A DNA stretch of 39,570 bases from Opitutaceae bacterium (GTDB taxonomy: Bacteria; Verrucomicrobiota; Verrucomicrobiia; Opitutales; Opitutaceae): positions 1 through 39,570 of the forward strand of contig DASRKV010000032.1 of the NCBI GenBank assembly GCA_035648795.1, written 5' to 3'. The notes beneath the pieces are model-generated. The model saw nothing but the letters and a program-made list of their open reading frames with translations. It did no database searches and was not told where the DNA came from. The translations under genes were made by a program, and so were the position numbers. Shown in pieces: positions 1 to 17,862 of the stretch. Within the stretch, counting starts at the first letter, position 1. Every line of letters begins with the position of its first letter.

Positions 1-429
1 GTGGGAATGCCCCGTCACGAAATCGTACTCGGCCAGGTATGGGTACACAAAGTCGAACGAACCCAGCACGATGGTATCGACATCGATATAGATGAATCGC
101 TCGAATTCGCCGTACCATGCCGCGGCTTTCCGATATTGTCCCACCACGCGCCCATGCAGCGCGCGGCTCAGGTCGTCGCACTCCCGGAGAATGTCGCGGT
201 TGTCAAAAAGGCTGAAGCCATACCGCTGACGAAGTCCGGCGATCAGGCGGATGTCGTCGTCGAAGGGGATCAGGCAGAGCAGCCGCGTCGGATTCTTGGC
301 CCGGAAGCTGTTGAGGAAGGCAACGACGAGGTCCAATACCCGATCATTCGCCAGGAAATAGACCCCGTCCGTGGCGATGCCTTGCGGTTTCTCGGGTTCT
401 TCGTGGAATCTGCCGGTAACAGGGTGCAT
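1..429 (-). CDS. Partial CDS (first 143 codons; continues beyond the left edge): GT-A / glycosyltransferase-family-8-like nucleotide-sugar transferase fold protein
   Basis: Not in the ORF track because it has no stop in the window. A reverse-strand ATG at 429 opens an uninterrupted frame down to position 1: MHPVTGRFHEEPEKPQGIATDGVYFLANDRVLDLVVAFLNSFRAKNPTRLLCLIPFDDD...GEFERFIYIDVDTIVLGSFDFVYPYLAEYDFVTGHSH. Third codon positions are G/C-rich. It has a DxD-type motif (IYIDVDTIVL) as in GT-A transferases. The listed + ORF 1..450 is its antisense shadow. Confidence 0.6.
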   Translation of the reverse strand, partial: MHPVTGRFHEEPEKPQGIATDGVYFLANDRVLDLVVAFLNSFRAKNPTRLLCLIPFDDDIRLIAGLRQRYGFSLFDNRDILRECDDLSRALHGRVVGQYRKAAAWYGEFERFIYIDVDTIVLGSFDFVYPYLAEYDFVTGHSH

Positions 430-1280
430 CACATCAGGTGCATTGGTTGACGTCGTCGGAAGTAGTCCGCTGCGTGCATATTTCAAGCTTCCGTGCGATA
501 CGGTCACGGTGGAAACGCTGCCGAATACCGGGTTTCCGGTATGACCCATGGACTCGCACGATTGACTCCACCGGAGATTAGACAACACACGAGCCGGTTA
601 TAGAAGACCAGTTCACGCTCGGAATCAGCGACGGTCGTTGGGTGCCCGAAAAGGCACCCGGGTCATTGACGAGCGACTCAACGGTCGCGAGGTCGGCGAC
701 CACGGACGTTGCGCCGACGATTTATGCGGCTCATCGTTGCCGACCAAAACAGCACTCGAGGTTGTGTCGATTTACTACGCCAAACAGCCACATTGAAGTG
801 GCCGCACGGTGAGGTGGCTCGCCTTGCAGGAAGTGGCGTAGCCGTCGGGTGCGTGGACCGGATTGAGACATTGACGGCGGAGATATTTCCCTGGGCCCCG
901 CCACAGAGAATGTCGGGCGACGACGTTCGTTCTCCCTGACAGCGCAACTTGTTCGGACACGTTCGCGATACCGGAACTCCGGTAAACGGGGCGATTGCGA
1001 CTCAATCGAACATCCATCGAATGAGACGCAGCACCACCACTCGCGCTCAGGTGCCGCTCACGCCACGTTCGAAGAATTTTGGTGGCGGACTCCGGGCCTG
1101 AGTGACCCCTGGATCCATCCTTTCTCCTCCAGAAATCTCAAACGGCCAATGGCCACTCTTGCACCCGACCCTCCACGCGATCTGCGTCTCACTGCGATGA
1201 GTTCCGCCAATTCATCCGGAGATAACGCCGCTGATCCATTGGCGGTCCAGCCAAGCGAGCCCTCAGTGACCGCCCATTGC

Positions 1281-1766
1281 ATGACGCGTCTTTTGATCGC
1301 TCTCAATCCGTTTTCCGCAAACCCCCCGAAGCCATTTCTGCCGTGGATGACCGTAAGGTACCTCGTCGTCATTTTGGCAGCTAACGCGCTTTTGTCACGC
1401 CTCGGTGGTCATGGCCGGCCCGATCTGGCCGGCATGACGCCGGCCAACCTGATTGTCTTGGCGGTTTTTCTCGGGCCGATCACCGAAACCTTCCTCTTTC
1501 AGGCCTTGTTCTGCGGACTGGCCAGGCGCTTGCGGTTGCGGTTCTGGTGGCAGGTGGCGGTGACGATGCTGCCGTTCGCGACCGCGCACTTCCACTATGG
1601 GCTCCGCACCGGTTTGCAGGCGGGGGTCGTGCTCGGGTATTTCTTAAGTTATGTATATGTGATCCAGCGACGCACTTCGTTCATCCGTGCTATCTCCTGG
1701 ACCTCTTTATTCCATATGCTGAACAATGGAGTAATTATATTTATCATTTTGCTCCTGCGGCATTAA
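1281..1766 (+). CDS. CPBP family intramembrane protease (CAAX protease / bacteriocin-processing, Abi-like); possible immunity function
   Basis: The ORF ends at 1766. Three CPBP signature blocks lie in hydrophobic helices: GPITETFLFQALF (EExxFR-like), LPFATAHFHYG (FxxxH), SLFHMLNNG (HxxxN). About 5 predicted TM helices. The start is ambiguous (ATG at 1149, 1281 or 1347); the conserved core begins at 1347 (MTVRYLVVIL...). Confidence 0.7.
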   Translation: MTRLLIALNPFSANPPKPFLPWMTVRYLVVILAANALLSRLGGHGRPDLAGMTPANLIVLAVFLGPITETFLFQALFCGLARRLRLRFWWQVAVTMLPFATAHFHYGLRTGLQAGVVLGYFLSYVYVIQRRTSFIRAISWTSLFHMLNNGVIIFIILLLRH

Positions 1767-1933
1767 ACGGGCAGCCGCGAAAGGCATTCGCTTTGTGGCC
1801 GCTTCCCTTTCACGGATCAGCATCACGACTCTCCCAGTGGCCGCCGAAGCAAGACGTAATTGTCCGAAGCGACGCAAGATACATTTCGTCTATCCAGACG
1901 AAGCTAGGAAAACATAAATAACCCAATACGCAG

Positions 1934-2140
1934 ATGCAATCAACCAACATAGTACACCTGACTGACCAAGAACTGGAAGGAATCGCCGGAGGGCTGGAAT
2001 GGGGAGTCGGCTTTCTTGGCTATCTCAACCCCGTGGCAGTGCTGGGCTTCGTTGGCTATGCCACCTATAGCCTGATCAGCAACTATAGCTCATATACGGC
2101 TGGCGTGAGCCAGGGTTATGACTATGCGGCGCGTCAATAA
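1934..2140 (+). CDS. Double-glycine-leader peptide precursor 1 (class II bacteriocin / microcin-like), 68 aa
   Basis: The leader MQSTNIVHLTDQELEGIAGG matches the GG-leader consensus (L-12, E-8, L-7, I-4, GG-2/-1). The 48-aa Cys-free core is Gly/Tyr/Ser-rich and hydrophobic: LEWGVGFLGYLNPVAVLGFVGYATYSLISNYSSYTAGVSQGYDYAARQ. Confidence 0.8.
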   Translation: MQSTNIVHLTDQELEGIAGGLEWGVGFLGYLNPVAVLGFVGYATYSLISNYSSYTAGVSQGYDYAARQ

Positions 2141-2156
2141 GTCAATCCTCCCTACA

Positions 2157-2357
2157 ATGAATACCATCGAACTGAACGAAGCAGAGTTGGCAGCGGTTAA
2201 CGGAGGCGATGATGCCTCCTTCTGGCAGACCGCGGGAGTGGTCGTCGGCTACGTGACCTACCAGGTTCAACAGATCGTGAACGCCGCCGCGAACTCGTTT
2301 GTCAGCGGCGCGAATTCCACTGCCTTCATGGCCGCCAACGGGCAGATTCTGTATTGA
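2157..2357 (+). CDS. Double-glycine-leader peptide precursor 2 (class II bacteriocin / microcin-like), 66 aa
   Basis: Uses an internal ATG of ORF 2118..2357. The leader MNTIELNEAELAAVNGG has L-12, E-8, L-7, V-4 and GG. The 49-aa Cys-free core is DDASFWQTAGVVVGYVTYQVQQIVNAAANSFVSGANSTAFMAANGQILY. It starts 17 nt after peptide 1. Confidence 0.75.
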   Translation: MNTIELNEAELAAVNGGDDASFWQTAGVVVGYVTYQVQQIVNAAANSFVSGANSTAFMAANGQILY

Positions 2358-2394
2358 GCTGGCGATCTCGATCCAAGCCCATTCGCTGCAGCCG

Positions 2395-2427
2395 GACGGC
2401 TCCTGTGTGGAACAGGAGCCGTCTTTG
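2395..2427 (+). terminator. Rho-independent terminator closing the peptide genes
   Basis: Perfect 11-bp stem GACGGCTCCTG / CAGGAGCCGTC with loop TGTGGAA, followed by TTTG. It lies between the peptide 2 stop (2357) and the convergent regulator stop (2456). Confidence 0.6.
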
Positions 2428-2455
2428 CGAGACTGGTTTGGGCCTGGTCTGACAA

Positions 2456-3235
2456 TCAAGTGTAGTGGGAATTGCCGGAGACCAATGGGGAACCGAGACG
2501 AATGCCGGCTTTCCGGCACCGTTTTGTTCGATGAGGAAGCCCAGGGGATGTTGAATCATCGCGCCAGGCGAACTCCCGTGACCGGGGGCCCTCGCGGATC
2601 TGCTCCGCGTCGAGCGCAATCCCGTGGGTCCGCGCGAAACGCACGAGCTCGGCGGTCGTCTTGAGCTCCAGCTTCCGCAGGATATTGAACCGATGCTTTT
2701 CCACCGTCTCCGCCGAGATCCTGAGCTCGGCGCCGATTTCGCGGTCGCTAAAGGGGACGGCGATCAGCGCCAAGACCGAGAGTTCACGATCGCTTAAGAT
2801 CTTATCGAAGGAGGTCGAGTCCCTCACCCGCGCCGAGCGGAGCCTGAGAAAACTTGGGGAGAAGTAGACGCCGTCGGCCGCAACCTTCGCGATGGCCTCA
2901 CTGAGGTCGGAAATCCCGACGGCGCGGTTGTCGACAAAGCCTCTGACGCGGCGCTTCTCCGCCCGGTAAACGGTGAACTGGTCGCAATGGGACGTGACGA
3001 CAATGATGCGAATGTCGGGCGCAATTTCCTGCGCGGCATCAGCGACGGCGAAGCCATCGACGTCGGGCAGGGGGAGGTCGAGCACGAGAAGCATGAAGGG
3101 CTGCAACTGCAGCTGTCGGATCGCAGAAGCTCCGTCGGCGACGCACACGACTTGGGCGGGCCCAAAAAGCGTCGAGCAGACCCGTTTGAGGACGCCTTGG
3201 AGGATGACGTGATCTTCCACGATCAAGGTATTCAT
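2456..3235 (-). CDS. Two-component response regulator, NarL/FixJ (LuxR-type HTH) family
   Basis: From internal ATG 3235: MNTLIVEDHVILQG...LLVLDLPLPDVDG (receiver domain with acceptor Asp). C-terminal LuxR HTH: LSDRELSVLALIAVPFSDREIGAELRISAETVEKHRFNILRKL. There is an unusual tail of about 50 aa after the HTH. No histidine kinase is adjacent. Confidence 0.9.
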   Translation of the reverse strand: MNTLIVEDHVILQGVLKRVCSTLFGPAQVVCVADGASAIRQLQLQPFMLLVLDLPLPDVDGFAVADAAQEIAPDIRIIVVTSHCDQFTVYRAEKRRVRGFVDNRAVGISDLSEAIAKVAADGVYFSPSFLRLRSARVRDSTSFDKILSDRELSVLALIAVPFSDREIGAELRISAETVEKHRFNILRKLELKTTAELVRFARTHGIALDAEQIREGPRSREFAWRDDSTSPGLPHRTKRCRKAGIRLGSPLVSGNSHYT

Positions 3236-3824
3236 CGGCAAAATGGATAAGCGAGCGATTGGAACAACCCCCACGGGCATTTTCTCTGCGGCCACCGGGA
3301 ACCGAAAAAGCAGAAAAGTTTTTATCGCCGCGAAATCACCATTGAATCAAGTGCAATTTTCACTTCAAAAGAATTTTCAGGCAGAGCTGGCCGGCGATGA
3401 GTTTGCGGCGGCAGGGCTCCAGAATCATCCGCGAAATCGACACGACTGATCGATGTGTGGTCCGGGCAGGTCAAGAGTCCCGATGCCATTGGTGTTGGCG
3501 GACGGAGAGGCAACAGCCAAGGTGGCGCCCTCCAGTCCACTGGATCATCCCTTCGAGACGACCGGGCGGGTGGCAACCGGGTAATTTGCGGGGCAAAGCG
3601 GAGAGAACTTTGCGGAGTGCATGACCTGGCCGCACGCCGCCGAACGGAATAGCAGGGGAGGGGGATTTTTAAGTCGTTGGCGGCGAAGCGGCAGATGTTC
3701 CCGCAAACGTCATGGCACGGTGTGGGCTGAAGGAGAATCGGCCAGCCTGTGCGCTCTTTCGCCAGAGTCCGGCAGGCGGCCAACCCTCAATCGATAGATA
3801 AATTCGAGAAATGCGCACTCAACC

Positions 3825-4625
3825 ATGAAGGCGAAAAACTACCTCCGTCTTCTAAGCATATTGTGGGGAACCGGATGGATCGTGCTGACGAGCATCAGTC
3901 CGCTCCGTGCCGACGAGCGGGATGACCGCGTCGAACAGGCATTCAGAGACAGTTACATCTATCACACGCAGTTGAAGGACGCCGACGTCTCGATTTCGTC
4001 GAAAGCCGGAGCGGTCACCTTAACCGGCCGCGTGGCGACGGACCAGGAGAAGCAACTCGCCCAAGATACCGACGTGGCGTTGCTTGGCGTCGGCACGGTC
4101 GACAATCAGTTGATTGTGCCGATGCAACCGGCGGAAGCGTCCGACGATTGGGTCGCGCTCAAAGTCCGCGGGACACTTCTGTTCGACCGCAATGTCAGCC
4201 TGACCGGCAAACAGGTGACCGTGAAAGATGGCATCGTGACCCTGACCGGCACGGCGGACAACGATGCCGAGAAAGCGTTGGCTGGCGAATACGCCGTCGA
4301 CGTGAAAGGAGTGAAAAGCGTAGTCAACAAGCTTGCGGTCGGCGGCCAGATGCAGACCTCCGAGATTCAGCCGCGTTCGCAGGAGTCGCGCACCATCGGT
4401 GAGAAGATCGACGACGCCTCGATCACGGCGCAGGCCAAATATGCCTTGGCGGTGCACCAGTCGACCAGCGCCTTGCGGACCCAGGTGGCGACCCAAGATG
4501 GCGTCGTGACCATTCGGGGAACCGCCAAGAACGCCGCCGAAAAAGCCTTGGTGACCAAGCTGACCGAGGACATCCAGGGCGTGAAAGACGTCCGCAACGA
4601 GAGGCAGGTTCAGGTCCAGGGCTAG
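3825..4625 (+). CDS. Periplasmic BON-domain protein (OsmY-like), three BON repeats
   Basis: N-terminal signal-like segment (LRLLSILWGTGWIVLTSISPLRA). Three repeats of the BON pattern, e.g. VTVKDGIVTLTGTADNDAEKALAGEYAVDVKGVKSVVNKL and VATQDGVVTIRGTAKNAAEKALVTKLTEDIQGVKDVRNE. Confidence 0.9.
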   Translation: MKAKNYLRLLSILWGTGWIVLTSISPLRADERDDRVEQAFRDSYIYHTQLKDADVSISSKAGAVTLTGRVATDQEKQLAQDTDVALLGVGTVDNQLIVPMQPAEASDDWVALKVRGTLLFDRNVSLTGKQVTVKDGIVTLTGTADNDAEKALAGEYAVDVKGVKSVVNKLAVGGQMQTSEIQPRSQESRTIGEKIDDASITAQAKYALAVHQSTSALRTQVATQDGVVTIRGTAKNAAEKALVTKLTEDIQGVKDVRNERQVQVQG

Positions 4626-4645
4626 GGAACTTCTGCTGCTGGGCG

Positions 4646-4667
4646 GGTGCGCGAACGCACCTTGTTG
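4646..4667 (+). terminator. Candidate intrinsic terminator after the BON gene
   Basis: Stem GGTGCG / CGCACC with loop CGAA, followed by TTGTTG. It starts 21 nt after the stop codon. Confidence 0.4.
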
Positions 4668-4670
4668 ATG

Positions 4671-4698
4671 GGCAGACCTGGTGTTTTCCAGGTCTGCC
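4671..4698. terminator. Strong hairpin between convergent genes (possible bidirectional terminator; no clear U-tract)
   Basis: Perfect 11-bp stem GGCAGACCTGG / CCAGGTCTGCC with loop TGTTTT. Its 3' edge abuts the stop codon of the minus-strand ORF 4698..4952. Confidence 0.4.
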
Positions 4699-4952
4699 TA
4701 CATCTCGCCGTGGCGTTGTCCGGAGATGCGAGGCGGTGGTTGTGTGAGCAGCTCCCAATCGAGTTGGGCAAGGAACATCTGATGCCCGGGTTCAGGCCGG
4801 GAATAGCGGGTGAAGATCCACTCGCGGCCGCCGGTAGTCGGGAAGTGTACATCGAGCACCAGAAGAGCGCCGAGCTCCGGCACCCATTCTGCCCAAAGAA
4901 CTCGGCTGCGAAAGAGGGCGGATCTTCCCCCAGGCGCCTCCCGAAAATCCAT
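4698..4952 (-). CDS. Hypothetical small protein (84 aa)
   Basis: ORF MDFREAPGGRSALFRSRVLWAEWVPELGALLVLDVHFPTTGGREWIFTRYSRPEPGHQMFLAQLDWELL... has non-repetitive, protein-like composition. It ends at a strong hairpin shared with the convergent BON gene. I recognise no family. Confidence 0.35.
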   Translation of the reverse strand: MDFREAPGGRSALFRSRVLWAEWVPELGALLVLDVHFPTTGGREWIFTRYSRPEPGHQMFLAQLDWELLTQPPPRISGQRHGEM

Positions 4953-5028
4953 CTCCTAACCAGCAACGACTCGCGCCGTCCGACCACCAGAAAAAATCCG
5001 CTTTTGGCTCCCAGTAGCGCAGGTCAGG

Positions 5029-5569
5029 CTAACGCGTCGACCGGGGGCAGGCACCGCGCGCGGCCTGATCGATCGCCAGATCCTGCAGCAGGCTCTGGTA
5101 AGCGGGCGATTCGCGCAGGAGCCGTTCTCCGCCCCGGATCAACCGGTCCGGTCCGTTTCCCCGGGCCGGTGGAGACTCGTCGGCACGGCATTGAAGAAGG
5201 CGGGCTCGGCGGGATCCTGACTCGCCTGGAAATCCACGCGAATGAAGTGGATCTTCGGCTGGTCCCGGGTGCCGATCCGCCGCGCCGTCCGCTGCGTCTG
5301 CCAAAGGGGCAGACTGGATTCGACGAGCGCGACCGTTTCCCTGGTCGTGCGGTCGATCGACGTGTTGCCGAGTGCGGTCTGAAACCGGTACCCCGCCGCA
5401 GGGTCACTCCGGGCGAGCGGCACGTTGCGGGAGCATGGGCGCAACCGACGACCAGAATTGCCAGGAGCGCAAGGCCGGGCAGCCGGGCGGAAAACCGATC
5501 ACGGGTGGAGGGCAGGCAGGGGGACCGGAAAGCATCGGAGAGGAAGATGGCACGGATCTGTATCGGCAC
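5029..5569 (-). pseudogene. Probable lipoprotein gene broken by two frameshifts (or sequencing errors)
   Basis: Frame A (GTG at 5569) encodes a signal peptide plus lipobox: ...RFSARLPGLALLAILVVGC. The coding-looking sequence with G/C-rich third positions then continues in a second frame (5139..5444: ...PLARSDPAAGYRFQTALGNTSIDRTTRETVALVESSLPLWQTQ...IHFIRVDFQASQDPAEPAFFNAV...). It continues again in a third frame (5029..~5160: ...RLIRGGERLLRESPAYQSLLQDLAIDQAARG). The second shift coincides with a GGACCGGACCGG slip-prone repeat. Confidence 0.4.
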
Positions 5570-5701
5570 TCACCGACCGGCAATTCCTCGATTGACCGGA
5601 ATGCCGTCAAGGCACCTAGCGGCCGGTGGCGTCCGAATCGAGAGAAATAGTGGCACAAGAAAACTGGCCAGCGGGGCAGAATCGTTTTCAATGGACGGCA
5701 G

Positions 5702-7552
5702 ATGTCTGCTCCGGCACTCGATTTCCGCAACACGAACAGTCTCTGGTGCAGCGTCGTCGTGGAAACGCTGGCGCGGCTGGGACTGCGCCATGCGGTCGTC
5801 TGCCCCGGCTCGCGTTCGGCACCGCTGACCTTTGCGTTCGCGCGGCATCCGCAGATCGAGGCGATTTCGGTGCTCGACGAGCGCTCGGCGGCGTTTTTCG
5901 GCCTGGGGCTGGCCCGTCGGTATCGCCGGCCGACCGCTCTGGTCTGCACGTCCGGGACGGCGGCGGCCGGTTTTCTGCCCGCGATCATCGAGGCGCACGA
6001 GAGCGGGGTGCCGTTGCTGGTGTTCACGGCCGACCGGCCGCCCGAGATGCGCGAATGCGGATCGGGGCAGACGATCGACCAACAGAAACTCTATGGCGGC
6101 TACGTGAATTACTACCACGAACTGGCTGTGCCCGAGGCGAAGATCGAGCTGCTGGAGTACGCGCGCCAGAACACCGCGCACGCCTTCGAACGCACCCAGT
6201 ATCCGTTCGCCGGCCCGGTCCACCTGAACGCGCCATTCCGGGATCCGCTGCCGCCGGTGGAAGATGGACTGACGGAGAAGCTGCGGCCAAGACTCGATCC
6301 GGAAACGTTTTTTGCCCATGTGGAGCCGGGTCCGGGTAGCGCTGGTCTGGGACGCAACGATGAATTCCTATGTGGGGCGGGATCGCCGGATCCCGCCGTT
6401 TTGCCGGAGGAGGCGGGGTACGGCGACCCCGCCCTACAACGCCTTGGGCGGTACTCGCGCGGCGTGATCGTTGCCGGTCCGGCGCAACCGGCCGACCCGG
6501 GGGCGTACTGCGCAGCGGTGGCCCGGATCGCCGGGGCATTGGGCTGGCCGGTTCTGGCGGACGGCCTCAATCCGTTGCGCAATCACGCGGCGGAGAATCC
6601 GCTGCTGGTAATCGACTACAACGCCGTGTTGCGCTCGGCCGCCCTGGCGGCGCGATTGAAGCCCGATGCAGTCCTGGGGCTGGGCGACTGGCCCACGAGC
6701 AAGCAACTGCGCCAGTGGCTGCACGGCGCGGATGCTGAAACATGGATGATCGCGGCCGACAACCGGAACCATGATCCGCTCCACGGCCGGACGCGGCACC
6801 TGCGATGCGGGGTCGAGGCGCTGGCGGCGGACTTTCCCCGGGAGGGGCGCGCAGCAACTGTCTACGCGGCCGAATGGCGGCGCGCGGACCAGGCGGCGCG
6901 CGAGTTACTCGACCGTCGGCTCGACGAAGCGGCGGGTCCGCCCGGTGCGAACTCCGGCCCGTTTTTCGAAGGGTGTGTGAGCTGGCTGCTCTCCCGACAT
7001 CTGCCGCCGGACACGCCGATCTTCGTGGCCAGCAGCATGCCGGTGCGGGATGTGGAGTTTTTTTGGAGGCTCAACGATCGTGGCTGCCGGCCCTATTTCA
7101 ACCGCGGCGCCAACGGCATCGACGGCACGCTGTCGACCGCGCTCGGCGTGGCGCATGGCAACCAGCCGGCGGTGTTGTTGACCGGCGATCTGGCGCTGCT
7201 GCACGACACGAACGGATTCCTGCTGCGGCCGAAGTTGCGGGGGAGCCTGACGATTGTGCTGATCAACAACCATGGCGGCGGGATTTTCGAGATGCTGTCC
7301 GTGGCAAAATTTGATCCGCCCTTCGAGGAATTCTTCGCCACGCCGCAGGAGGTGGATTTCGGGCGGCTCTGCCCGGCGTACGGAGCCGAGCACGTGCTTG
7401 TCCGCGACCGGGCGCATTTGACCGCGCTGATCTCGGTGTTGCCGAAGGCCGGCCTCCGCGTGCTGGAAGTGCGGACGGAACGCAAGCGTGACGCGGCATT
7501 GCGCCGGGAGCTGTTCGGTGCGGCCGCGCAGGCGGCGGAAGCGGCGGTTTAA
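5702..7552 (+). CDS. menD: 2-succinyl-5-enolpyruvyl-6-hydroxy-3-cyclohexene-1-carboxylate (SEPHCHC) synthase
   Basis: 616 aa. The N-terminus NSLWCSVVVETLARLGLRHAVVCPGSRSAPLT...VCTSGTAAAGFLPAIIEAHESGVPLLVFTADRPPE is typical MenD. ThDP-binding block: LLTGDLALLHDTNG...VLINNHGGGIF. Confidence 0.93.
   Translation: MSAPALDFRNTNSLWCSVVVETLARLGLRHAVVCPGSRSAPLTFAFARHPQIEAISVLDERSAAFFGLGLARRYRRPTALVCTSGTAAAGFLPAIIEAHESGVPLLVFTADRPPEMRECGSGQTIDQQKLYGGYVNYYHELAVPEAKIELLEYARQNTAHAFERTQYPFAGPVHLNAPFRDPLPPVEDGLTEKLRPRLDPETFFAHVEPGPGSAGLGRNDEFLCGAGSPDPAVLPEEAGYGDPALQRLGRYSRGVIVAGPAQPADPGAYCAAVARIAGALGWPVLADGLNPLRNHAAENPLLVIDYNAVLRSAALAARLKPDAVLGLGDWPTSKQLRQWLHGADAETWMIAADNRNHDPLHGRTRHLRCGVEALAADFPREGRAATVYAAEWRRADQAARELLDRRLDEAAGPPGANSGPFFEGCVSWLLSRHLPPDTPIFVASSMPVRDVEFFWRLNDRGCRPYFNRGANGIDGTLSTALGVAHGNQPAVLLTGDLALLHDTNGFLLRPKLRGSLTIVLINNHGGGIFEMLSVAKFDPPFEEFFATPQEVDFGRLCPAYGAEHVLVRDRAHLTALISVLPKAGLRVLEVRTERKRDAALRRELFGAAAQAAEAAV
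6371..6438. repeat. Family-1 palindromic (REP/MITE-like) element copy, located inside the menD reading frame
   Basis: TGTGGGGCGGGATCGCCGGATCCCGCC...GGCGGGGTACGGCGACCCCGCCCTACA. The termini are inverted repeats and match the copies at 10017..10096 and 27777..27842. It is translated within MenD as CGAGSPDPAVLPEEAGYGDPALQ. Confidence 0.7.
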
Positions 7553-16141: not shown

Positions 16142-17038
16142 TCAGGCCGAGGCCAGCGCGTTCTGCGTATTCAGGTGCTCGAAGCCGGTGTACTTCTGCG
16201 ACTGTTCGTCGGCGTGATAGCTCGACCGCACGAGCGGACCGCTCTCCACGACGCCGAAGCCGACCGACAGGCCGAATTGCTTCCATTGCTGGAACTCCTC
16301 CGGCGTCACCCAGCGATCCACCGGCAGATGTTGCGCCGTGGGTTGCAGGTACTGCCCGATGGTGAGGATCTCCACCCGGTCGCTGACCAGGTCGCGCAGC
16401 GTTTGCTCGATCTCCTCGCGCCGTTCCCCCAAGCCCAGCATGATTCCGGTCTTGATGGTGAAACCGCGCGCCTTGGCGTGGCGCAGCACCGTGCGGCTGC
16501 GGTCGTAGCGCGCCTGAACCCGCACCGGCTTCTGGAGCCGTTCCACGGTCTCGACATTGTGGTTGAAAATGTCCGGTCGCGCCTCGAGCACCGTGTCGAC
16601 GTCCGGCAGGTGGCCCTTGAAGTCGGGCACCAGGACTTCGATGGCGGTCTGCGGATTGCGGTGGCGCACGGCGCGAATCGTGGCGGCCCAGACGCCCGCT
16701 CCGCCGTCCGCGAGTTCATCGCGGGCGACGCTGGTGATCACGACGTGGCGGAGATTCATGCGGGCCACGGCCTCGGCCACGCGCGCCGGCTCGCCAAAAT
16801 CCAGTTCCGTCGGGCGGCCGGTCTGGATGGCGCAGAAGTTGCACGACCGGGTGCAGATGTTGCCGAGGATCATCACCGTGGCGGTGCCGCGCGACCAGCA
16901 TTCGCCGAGGTTCGGACATTGGGCGCTCTGGCAGACGGTATGCAGGCCCTCGCTATCGATGAGTTGGCGGACGGCGGCGTAGCCCGGGCCGTTCGGAAGC
17001 CTGGCCCGGAGCCAGGATGGTTTGTGCGACACCTGCAT
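16142..17038 (-). CDS. lipA: Lipoyl synthase
   Basis: From internal ATG 17038: MQVSHKPSWLRARLP...TVCQSAQCPNLGECW (auxiliary cluster), CTRSCNFCAI (radical SAM CxxxCxxC), GIMLGLGE. The 197-codon N-terminal extension of the listed ORF overlaps lipB and is Arg-rich nonsense. Confidence 0.95.
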   Translation of the reverse strand: MQVSHKPSWLRARLPNGPGYAAVRQLIDSEGLHTVCQSAQCPNLGECWSRGTATVMILGNICTRSCNFCAIQTGRPTELDFGEPARVAEAVARMNLRHVVITSVARDELADGGAGVWAATIRAVRHRNPQTAIEVLVPDFKGHLPDVDTVLEARPDIFNHNVETVERLQKPVRVQARYDRSRTVLRHAKARGFTIKTGIMLGLGERREEIEQTLRDLVSDRVEILTIGQYLQPTAQHLPVDRWVTPEEFQQWKQFGLSVGFGVVESGPLVRSSYHADEQSQKYTGFEHLNTQNALASA

Positions 17039-17115
17039 TTTTACGGAAGGAAACGGAGGAAACGAGGTTTGGCGAGCATGATTCCAGTCCGGAGAACCAA
17101 GGATCGGACTTTCGG

Positions 17116-17862
17116 CTACGAAGGGGAGGCAGCCGCAGTGCCGGCGTTTTCTTTTTTGCCCTCTGCCAGAAAAATCTTGAATTGCGTCCAGAACTCGGCG
17201 GCAAGCACCTGTTTCACCTCCGCGAGGTCGAACGCGCGGCCCAGTTCCTGCCGGATCGAGGTGACGGTGCCGTCGGTGATACCGCACGGCACGATGCCGG
17301 CGAACGGCCCTAGGTCGTTGTTCACGTTGAGCGCGAAGCCGTGGAAGGTCACCCAGCGTTTCACCGCCACGCCGATCGCGGCGATCTTCCGGGAACCAAG
17401 CCAGATGCCGGTCTTGCCCGGCCGCCGGGCCGCGGCGAGACCGAGGCTGCCCAGCGAGTGGATGAGCACCTGTTCGAGAAAACGCAGGTAGGCGTGAAGA
17501 TCCTGGTGCAGGTTCAGACTGACGATCGGATAGCCGACGATCTGCCCGGGACCGTGATAGGTGATGTCGCCGCCGCGGTTCGTCTCCACCAACTCGATGC
17601 CGCGGCGGGCGAGTTCGGCGGTATCCCACACGAGATTGCGCGCGGCGCCGGGCCGGACGCCGAGGGTGTACACCGGCTCGTGCTCGGTGAAAACGAGGGT
17701 GTCGCCGACTTCGCCGGCGAGCCGCTGCGCCACCAACGCCTCCTGTTGGCGCCAGGCCGCGGAATAGCGCGTGCGTCCCCAGTCAATGGTGACCGGCGCA
17801 GTCCGCTCCGGGCGGCTGGAGACGGGCCAGGGGAGCACAGGAGCGGCAGTTGCGGCAGCCAT
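17116..17862 (-). CDS. lipB: Octanoyltransferase (lipoyl(octanoyl) transferase)
   Basis: LVFTEHEPVYTLG, RGGDITYHGPGQIVGYPI, KIAAIGV...HGFALNV, IVPCGI (catalytic Cys). It lies immediately upstream of lipA. Confidence 0.9.
   Translation of the reverse strand: MAAATAAPVLPWPVSSRPERTAPVTIDWGRTRYSAAWRQQEALVAQRLAGEVGDTLVFTEHEPVYTLGVRPGAARNLVWDTAELARRGIELVETNRGGDITYHGPGQIVGYPIVSLNLHQDLHAYLRFLEQVLIHSLGSLGLAAARRPGKTGIWLGSRKIAAIGVAVKRWVTFHGFALNVNNDLGPFAGIVPCGITDGTVTSIRQELGRAFDLAEVKQVLAAEFWTQFKIFLAEGKKENAGTAAASPS

Follow-up and report, generated by a model that had tools for sequence, protein, structure and literature searches.

A double-glycine-leader peptide pair from Opitutaceae, probably part of a two-peptide microcin-like bacteriocin system, beside a conserved enzyme and export module

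The stretch analysed here (the window) comprises 39,570 nucleotides of contig DASRKV010000032.1, from an Opitutaceae bacterium, and carries two tandem genes, pep1 and pep2, whose products begin with double-glycine (GG) leaders, downstream of a gene for a CPBP/Abi-family membrane protein. Gene content, motifs, their conservation and their linkage indicate that this locus is probably the peptide and immunity arm of a two-peptide GG-leader, microcin-like bacteriocin system of a soil Opitutia bacterium. The locus is partly ordinary, being a GG-leader bacteriocin locus with its exporter adjacent, yet it is embedded in an undescribed conserved module of enzymes and transport proteins.

Results

Peptide genes and their conservation

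The pep1 gene (1934..2140, plus strand) encodes a 68-aa precursor made up of a 20-aa double-glycine leader, MQSTNIVHLTDQELEGIAGG, and a 48-aa core, LEWGVGFLGYLNPVAVLGFVGYATYSLISNYSSYTAGVSQGYDYAARQ. It is followed in tandem, after 16 nt, by pep2 (2157..2357, plus strand), which encodes a 66-aa precursor with a 17-aa double-glycine leader, MNTIELNEAELAAVNGG, and a 49-aa core, DDASFWQTAGVVVGYVTYQVQQIVNAAANSFVSGANSTAFMAANGQILY; the CPBP gene lies on the same strand. Both leaders place Leu at position −12, Glu at −8, Leu at −7, Ile or Val at −4 and Gly-Gly at −2/−1, in agreement with the coordinates and the full leader consensus that had been reported for the two open reading frames (ORFs) in an earlier reading of this DNA (the original prediction). 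When the six frames of the window were scanned with the strict pattern LxxxELxx[IV]xGG, two matches were obtained, and these are the N-termini of pep1 and pep2. Since 300 first-order Markov simulated windows contained a mean of 0.007 matches, the leader motif is non-random. It is also kept in the homologous peptides P0002, P0004 and P0125 and in pepA of the related cluster L102 described below. Profile searches against GG-leader bacteriocin families, which had been proposed as a check, gave a divided result: the pep2 leader alone passes the NCBIfam model TIGR01847 (bacteriocin_sig; 17.7 bits, cut-off 15.7), with the whole of pep2 at 14.6 bits and no entry for pep1 among the listed matches, but the cores fall below all curated family cut-offs.

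Both cores lack Cys, as do the homologues of either peptide. The pep1 core is rich in Gly, Tyr and Ser, and several of its Ser and Tyr residues are conserved in the alignment. Each core contains a GxxxG motif (GVSQG in pep1, GVVVG in pep2) whose Gly residues are invariant among the homologues (G57 and G61 in pep1, G27 and G31 in pep2). The predicted core lengths, Cys-free composition and GxxxG-like spacing are thus all present.

The peptide family is very small. Homologues of pep1 are P0002 (71% identical) and L102 pepA (56%), and a full HMMER profile search of 1.84 billion representative proteins returned only P0004 and P0125 (59 aa) as relatives of pep2; word-indexed protein searches gave two matches for each peptide. 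Gene calls on 14 independent metagenome contigs give an identical pep1 protein, both peptide ORFs are kept on contig L012 (70% identical to the window), and the order pep1-pep2 is the same in the window, in L012, in the variant contig L011 and in L102. Compared with L012, the ratio of nonsynonymous to synonymous divergence (dN/dS) is 0.19 for pep1 and 0.135 for pep2, and the other frames are full of stops. The pep1 and pep2 ORFs are under purifying selection. The reverse pattern, in which GG-like N-termini are not conserved while other frames are, was not seen, and the homologues together with the dN/dS values bear out the view that these are real, conserved GG-leader peptide genes of bacteriocin or microcin type that stand with a CPBP gene.

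Mismatches between the window and L011 (95.5% identical) cluster in 1800..2600, which covers the peptide genes and their flanks and reaches up to 22 mismatches per 100 nt, compared with 0–5 elsewhere. Synonymous divergence (dS) between the same sequences is 0.35 for pep2 and 0.03 for the CPBP gene. This concentration suggests that alleles of the peptide genes have been replaced through recombination. Comparison of strains shows these genes to be a hot spot of divergence, as is typical of bacteriocin alleles.

One further variant was observed in contig L098 (JGI 3300006795, 99% identical), where a 71-nt insertion (L098 2871-2941) with an internal inverted repeat falls at window 1951/1952, after codon 6 of pep1, and introduces a premature stop. 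This could be either a natural knockout variant or an assembly artefact.

An adjacent export operon

GG leaders are cut by ATP-binding cassette (ABC) exporters with a C39 peptidase domain. No ABC exporter is encoded inside the window, and the original prediction had proposed that the locus is an orphan, with an exporter that is either novel in type or encoded at another place in the genome. Taken literally, the statement that no exporter is in view holds for the window, but it misleads, because the window was cut inside the first gene of the exporter operon. Its left end, 1..549 (minus strand), holds only the 5' part (codons 1-183) of a 370-aa GT8-like glycosyltransferase gene. Contig L001 (ENA ERZ27294426) is 99.2% identical to window 1..7098 over 7,098 bp and runs 7.5 kb further left. 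There, the GT8-like gene (L001 6974..8086, minus strand; window 549 and leftwards, although its true start may be the ATG at 429) is the first of an operon divergent from the CPBP-peptide operon, in the order GT8-like protein, LanC-like protein (664 aa), HlyD-type adaptor (414 aa), C39-ABC-GH26 exporter (1093 aa) and the start of a gene for a GT1 (MGT-like) glycosyltransferase. The HlyD and exporter genes begin about 2.7 kb left of window position 1, with the exporter gene itself at about 4 to 7.3 kb. Contig L002 carries the leftward continuation as well, and L003, L005 and L006 reach left at least through the GT8-like gene.

The exporter (L001 277..3558, minus strand) contains Peptidase_C39, ABC_membrane, ABC_tran and Glyco_hydro_26 domains. 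Alignment of its C39 domain with that of the lacticin 3147 exporter LtnT matched the oxyanion Gln, the catalytic Cys (QHDVTDCGAACL, within the motif QHDxTDCGAACL), the His (HYVVV) and the Asp (MDPA). Its best NCBIfam match is a peptide cleavage/export ABC transporter (1.4e-125; 420.5 bits, below the cut-off of 523.85). By its sequence, therefore, the exporter beside the peptide locus is of the standard C39/HlyD type, apart from an extra C-terminal domain. Export of pep1 and pep2 by this adjacent protein is very likely, and an orphan locus served by a distant or novel exporter, which had in its favour only the lack of an ABC exporter within the 39.6-kb window, now appears highly improbable.

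Related clusters

The same module is kept beside Gly-rich GG-leader peptides in three diverged clusters. In L102, one strand carries genes for a LanC-like protein, HlyD, a C39-ABC-GH26 exporter (65% identical), GT1, a pep1 homologue (pepA, 56%), P0125 (47% identical to pep2) and a CPBP homologue (47%). In L093/L094, a NarL-type regulator stands with two other GG-leader peptides, each followed by a small protein with multiple transmembrane (TM) segments, and with a GT8-like protein (51%), a LanC-like protein, HlyD, C39-ABC-GH26, GT1 and an M16 peptidase; one of the two peptides is Cys-free and the other (78 aa, L093) has a single Cys. L105 encodes a GG peptide of 99 aa that is Gly-rich and Cys-free, a TM protein of 156 aa, LanC-like, HlyD, C39-ABC-GH26, GT1 and GT8-like proteins and an esterase. 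The membrane proteins of L093 and L105 have no Pfam match. The trio of two peptides and a CPBP protein, which it had been suggested to look for in relatives, was found in L011 and L102.

A search of genome contigs with the LanC-like protein gave no relatives, and a search of metagenome contigs with the LanC-like alignment gave two near-identical fragments only. A reduced and distant cousin of the module, known from annotation, was seen on a plasmid of Flammeovirga pectinis (Bacteroidota; NZ_CP034564, 44594-51369). Its genes encode a redoxin, a C39-ABC protein, a GG-leader peptide (51 aa, two Cys), a GLPGLI protein, a LanC-like protein without zinc ligands, and GT1.

The CPBP protein and the response regulator

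Immediately upstream of the peptide genes, as had been predicted, lies a gene on the same strand (1149..1766, plus) for a CPBP/Rce1-like (Abi) intramembrane protease homologue of 205 aa, or of 161 aa from the alternative start at 1281. The assignment is borne out by Pfam PF02517 (32.1 bits; gathering cut-off 22.4). About four TM segments are predicted, and motifs 2 (FATAH) and 3 (HMLNN) are intact when compared with FxxxH and HxxxN/D. The L102 homologue has the same motif forms, including a degenerate motif 1 (discussed below). Abi/CPBP proteins provide immunity in plantaricin and sakacin loci, and for the protein described here we regard a role in immunity as an even call.

On the other side of the peptide genes, a convergent gene (2456..3235, minus strand) encodes a 259-aa NarL/LuxR-type response regulator with receiver and GerE helix-turn-helix domains (Pfam GerE 1.1e-13, Response_reg 2.9e-13); its start at 3235 was taken from 259-aa gene calls on other contigs. 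This protein is a putative regulator of the peptide locus, and a homologous NarL-type regulator is found at the edge of L093. Apart from the hairpin described below, no meaningful direct or inverted repeats that could serve as regulator sites were found in 450..2460.

The conservation of such a regulator beside the peptides in both the window and L093 would also fit a different function, in which the peptides leave the cell as pheromones for signalling (quorum-sensing or competence type), sensed through the adjacent regulator, and the CPBP protein is a maturation protease like MroQ acting on AgrD. MroQ is indeed the best NCBIfam match of the CPBP protein, although a weak one (19.8 bits against a cut-off of 270), and pheromones of the CSP/BlpC type use GG leaders too. 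However, known GG-leader pheromones are much shorter than the 48-49 aa cores found here, which are hydrophobic, contain GxxxG and have been conserved together. The locus has no neighbouring histidine kinase gene, and in the related clusters a small multi-TM protein stands with each peptide, an arrangement that corresponds to a bacteriocin and its immunity protein. A signalling function is consequently considered unlikely (GG-leader pheromones of the CSP/BlpC type are reviewed in PMC7595303).

Enzymes of the module

One alternative would make the peptides precursors of lanthipeptides, with the LanC-like protein as their cyclase. This protein does match Pfam LANC_like (3.7e-13) and the NCBIfam LanM C-domain (6e-20, below cut-off). 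Alignment with LtnM1 and LtnM2 shows that the LanC-like proteins of L001, L093 and Flammeovirga retain neither the catalytic His nor any of the zinc ligands (Cys/Cys/His); in L102 only the last His is kept, and L105, compared at the catalytic-His position alone, has a replacement there. The signature AHG has become LNG, LQG or LKG, WCxG has become WGSG, WGNG, WANG or WI-G, and CHG has become ENG, QNG, LHG or KNG. No dehydratase (LanB, LanM N-domain or kinase/lyase) is encoded in any of the four clusters L001, L093/L094, L102 and L105. Since the cores are Cys-free and no cluster has a dehydratase, this is not lanthipeptide chemistry, and an origin of the peptides as precursors cyclised by the LanC-like protein is effectively refuted.

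The LanC-like protein ends in a domain of about 240 aa (L001 4840..5574, minus strand) with the conserved motifs SFRHHLFRE, FDPSD, VTQRQLA and AGYLFP. No Pfam or PDB sequence match was obtained for it, and recognition of the leader is a possible role.

The fold of the GT8-like protein was taken from AlphaFold and Foldseek because PDB sequence searches were empty, as they also were with the LanC-like protein and the LanC-like profile. The model has a predicted local distance difference test score (pLDDT) of 86, with residues 1-37 below 50, and among its structural matches are retaining enzymes of family GT8: GlyE, LgtC and glycogenin, at E values of about 1e-6, and LARGE1. The protein has a GT-A fold, and its DxD motif (D156xD158) is invariant in 40 homologues. 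In NCBIfam the match is to the Npun_R2821/R2822 family (3e-34, below cut-off), of which no description was found in the literature. Glycogenin, to which the GT8-like protein is structurally related, glucosylates Tyr. For the GT1 glycosyltransferase, NCBIfam gave only generic MGT-family matches. The idea of a siderophore microcin, with GT1 as the equivalent of IroB/MceC, was dropped in view of these generic matches and of the lack of a Ser-rich C-terminus.

The extra C-terminal domain of the exporter (L001 277..1398, minus strand) is strongly similar to the GH26 mannanase-family protein Man26A of Cellvibrio (4e-54). The acid/base Glu is Asp in L001 and L093, Gln in L102 and Gly in L105. At the nucleophile position, L001 and L093 have Ala and L102 keeps the Glu, so that this residue is replaced in two of the three clusters where it was located; the position was not located in L105. 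The domain follows the cytoplasmic ATPase domain of the exporter with no TM segment between them. Given the lost catalytic Glu and the cytoplasmic position, it would act as a binding module and not as a hydrolase.

This fusion of GH26 to the cytoplasmic C-terminus of a C39 ABC exporter occurs in four diverged clusters (L001, L093, L102 and L105), and the domain architecture appears to be undescribed so far.

Because the GT1, GT8-like and LanC-like genes are co-conserved with the peptide genes, the products may not be unmodified class II peptides, and glycosylation or another modification is judged about as probable as its absence. The abundance of carbohydrate-related domains (GT1, GT8-like, GH26-like and the LanC-like alpha/alpha-toroid) would also suit secreted glycopeptides without an antagonistic role, acting for example at the surface, in the matrix or in adhesion, within a module devoted mainly to glycoconjugate export. 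Relatives of the GT8-like protein are found in glycan clusters of the ordinary kind, where the ABC exporter is plain, and a likeness to endoglucanases has been noted for many unclassified LanC-like proteins (Walker et al. 2020, PMC7268733). Against this, the C39 peptidase active site of the exporter is complete, GG-leader peptides are adjacent in every cluster, each peptide has a CPBP or small membrane protein beside it, and the locus varies between strains with hypervariable peptide genes. On balance a non-antagonistic role of this kind seems quite unlikely, and an antagonistic function of the peptides remains the probable one.

Comparison with known systems

In its peptide and putative immunity genes the locus resembles class IIb bacteriocins of Firmicutes (lactococcin G, enterocin 1071, plantaricin EF/JK), which likewise have two GG-leader peptides of about the same size, encoded side by side in a single operon and both bearing conserved GxxxG motifs, together with a single adjacent CPBP/Abi-family membrane protein and a C39 ABC exporter with an accessory protein. 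The best sub-threshold NCBIfam matches are to the lactococcin G type, pep2 to the alpha and pep1 to the beta family, but the scores stay below the cut-off of 37 for the lactococcin G/enterocin 1071 families (NF038035, NF038034) at 28.9 bits for pep2 and 18.8 for pep1; about half of the pep2 score comes from the leader, and the cores alone give at most 13.4 bits. Pfam Bacteriocin_IIc (PF10439) reaches 19.6 against a cut-off of 27.1. Membership of the lactococcin G families was rejected on these scores. The host here is a diderm Verrucomicrobium, the cores are longer, Tyr/Gly-rich and not cationic, and class IIb loci lack the glycosyltransferases, the LanC-like protein and the GH26-fused exporter.

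Class II microcins of Enterobacteria (microcin V/colicin V with CvaAB-TolC; the siderophore-microcins E492, H47 and M with the GT1 enzyme MceC) share with this locus a Gram-negative host, GG-leader peptides below 10 kDa that are Gly-rich and Cys-poor, and an immunity protein that is small and membrane-bound. Export likewise runs through a C39 ABC exporter, a HlyD-type adaptor and an outer-membrane channel encoded at an unlinked site, the immunity role and the channel here being presumed. In class IIb microcin clusters, moreover, a GT1-family glycosyltransferase takes part in post-translational modification. Unlike these microcins, to which no sequence similarity was detected, pep1 and pep2 have no Ser-rich C-terminus; no MceI/J-like or enterobactin genes were seen here, and the microcin loci are without LanC-like, GT8-like and GH26-like components.

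Glycocins (sublancin, glycocin F, pallidocin, enterocin F4-9) are also GG-leader bacteriocins, and in these systems a cluster-encoded glycosyltransferase acts in the cytoplasm before C39-ABC export (PMC6405829, PMC8620827, PMC12457901); glycosylation in the present locus is a prediction from gene content. Glycocins use a SunS-type GT2 enzyme and Cys-rich, disulfide-bonded helix-loop-helix cores, whereas the enzymes here are GT1 and GT8-like, no GT2 glycosyltransferase was seen in the cluster, and no disulfides are possible since the cores contain no Cys. A classical glycocin identity was rejected for want of both a SunS-like GT2 and a disulfide-stapled core.

An alpha/alpha-toroid without zinc ligands is also found in the cyclase domain of class III LanKC enzymes, but the LanC-like protein described here has no kinase or lyase domain, and no thioether chemistry is possible with substrates that lack Cys. 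Among genome-mined sequences, about 1,400 unclassified LanC-like proteins have been described, some near ABC transporters and proteases and possibly representing an uncharacterised RiPP (a ribosomally made peptide with post-translational modification) class (Walker et al. 2020, PMC7268733). The protein reported here resembles these in lying beside RiPP-type transport genes with no known dehydratase, and differs from other zinc-less LanC-like systems in its conserved C-terminal domain of about 240 aa without a Pfam match.

The closest arrangement outside the Verrucomicrobia-type clusters is that of Flammeovirga pectinis, where a zinc-less LanC-like protein, an MGT-like GT1 and a C39 ABC exporter likewise stand beside a GG-leader peptide. 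Its GT1 shares the N-terminal motif ILF[KR][IV]FPQxSHxNATF with the Verrucomicrobia GT1s. The Flammeovirga peptide differs in having two Cys and a redoxin partner, its LanC-like protein is only about 21% identical, and the GH26 fusion, HlyD, the GT8-like gene and CPBP are missing.

No description of the module was found in the literature on LanC-like proteins with glycosyltransferases and GG leaders or on Gram-negative glycocins.

Genomic setting and neighbouring features

The rest of the window encodes housekeeping proteins (Dxs, MenD, LysS, SucAB, Lpd, LipA, HemW). The closest MenD relatives are from Verrucomicrobiota, Opitutia/Opitutaceae, the best being 80% identical and from a Verrucomicrobiae metagenome-assembled genome (L013). 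This closest genome shares synteny with the window to the right of about 5150 and has no cluster genes in the 10 kb upstream of menD; a scan of genome contigs with MenD found no genome carrying the cluster. Since the corresponding site next to menD in L013 lacks it, the locus is an accessory island, a conclusion that rests on synteny and not on composition.

Horizontal acquisition had originally been argued from an A/T-rich stretch at 450..2450 and from rare codons. GC content is 0.589 in window 1..5150 and 0.651 in the rest, but it is clearly low at about 1600..2100 only (0.46-0.53), and the combined counts of AGA, TTA and ATA are tiny: three in the CPBP gene, one in pep1 and none in pep2. 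With the GC content of the upstream module genome-like at 0.649, compositional evidence for horizontal transfer was rejected as weak, while the accessory nature of the locus stands by synteny.

Between the convergent pep2 and response-regulator genes lies a GC-rich hairpin (2394..2427, plus strand) with a 12-13 bp stem, a 5-nt loop and a following TTT. The stem is perfect over 12 bp (2395-2406 / 2412-2423; fold z = −3.0), and the element is a probable terminator. To call it a strong one, as was done originally, agrees with the perfect stem but goes beyond the short TTT, and a terminator consensus scan made no call.

The divergent intergenic region at 550..1148 separates the modification/export operon from the CPBP-peptide operon. 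It contains, within 638..796, the 3' remnant of an 86-aa ORF that is intact in L011. The 279 additional nt of L011 (220-498), located between window 757 and 760, complete this ORF, for which Pfam gave no match.

Between the regulator gene and the conserved menD block, a gene at 3825..4625 (plus strand) encodes a secreted protein with BON domains (three matched stretches). L011 lacks window 3754-4514, which is most of this gene, and L013 lacks the gene too; it belongs to the variable region.

Further right, the lipoyl synthase ORF (16142..17629, minus strand) is 495 aa long and matches LipA on residues 199-478 only. This reflects either an N-terminal extension of 200 aa or a mis-set start in a mechanical ORF call.

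Discussion

The original view of the locus as a GG-leader bacteriocin or microcin type with a CPBP protein stands, but the orphan exporter and the argument from composition do not. In the system favoured here, pep1 and pep2 would be translated as precursors with leaders of 20 and 17 residues. The C39 domain of the exporter would cut after GG, and export of the 48- and 49-residue cores would also involve the HlyD-type adaptor and an outer-membrane channel encoded at an unlinked site. The CPBP membrane protein would shield the producer, or might aid maturation, and expression may be under the control of the NarL-type response regulator. Before export, the cores would probably be modified in the cytoplasm by the GT1 and GT8-like enzymes with help from the zinc-less LanC-like protein, and the degenerate GH26-like domain of the exporter may bind the sugar-bearing peptide. 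Whether pep1 and pep2 would act in synergy, as in class IIb pairs, is on present evidence evenly balanced.

Several observations weigh against this reading. Neither core reaches the cut-off of any curated bacteriocin family. The exporter is known from the near-identical contig L001, outside the window's own sequence, and neither the window nor L001 encodes a TolC-type outer-membrane channel. The window and the adjoining locus likewise contain no histidine kinase for the regulator. Motif 1 of the CPBP protein is ETFLFQ in place of EExxxR, so that the Arg and the second of the two Glu are lost. The membrane proteins beside the L093 and L105 peptides are not CPBPs, which means that CPBP is no fixed part of the module. 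Finally, there is no GT8-like gene beside the L102 cluster, and the wider GT8-like family is found in ordinary glycan clusters too.

A more specific proposal, which we put forward tentatively and hold to be possible but doubtful, is that the locus represents an undescribed class: Cys-free, Gly/Tyr/Ser-rich GG peptides glycosylated by cytoplasmic GT1 and GT8-like enzymes, with the LanC-like protein as a scaffold that presents the peptides, and with the dead GH26 'pseudo-mannanase' checking at the exporter for sugar before release. The module is present in at least four diverged Verrucomicrobia-type clusters, and its reduced form (LanC-like, GT1, C39-ABC and GG peptide) on a Bacteroidota plasmid.

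To our knowledge, bacteriocins of Verrucomicrobia are essentially unstudied. The peptide family is almost without public relatives (two for pep2 in the whole set of representative proteins). Its GG-leader peptides are linked to a set of conserved enzymes that cannot be placed in any present RiPP class: glycosyltransferases of GT1 and GT8-like type, a LanC-like protein lacking the zinc site, and a peptidase-ABC exporter with a degenerate GH26 domain. If the peptides are unmodified, this would simply be a new, ordinary two-peptide microcin-like system. If they are modified by this enzyme set, the locus would represent a new glycopeptide bacteriocin chemistry and a new coupling of modification to export, and it would provide a function for some of the 'unclassified' LanC-like proteins known from genome mining (PMC7268733).

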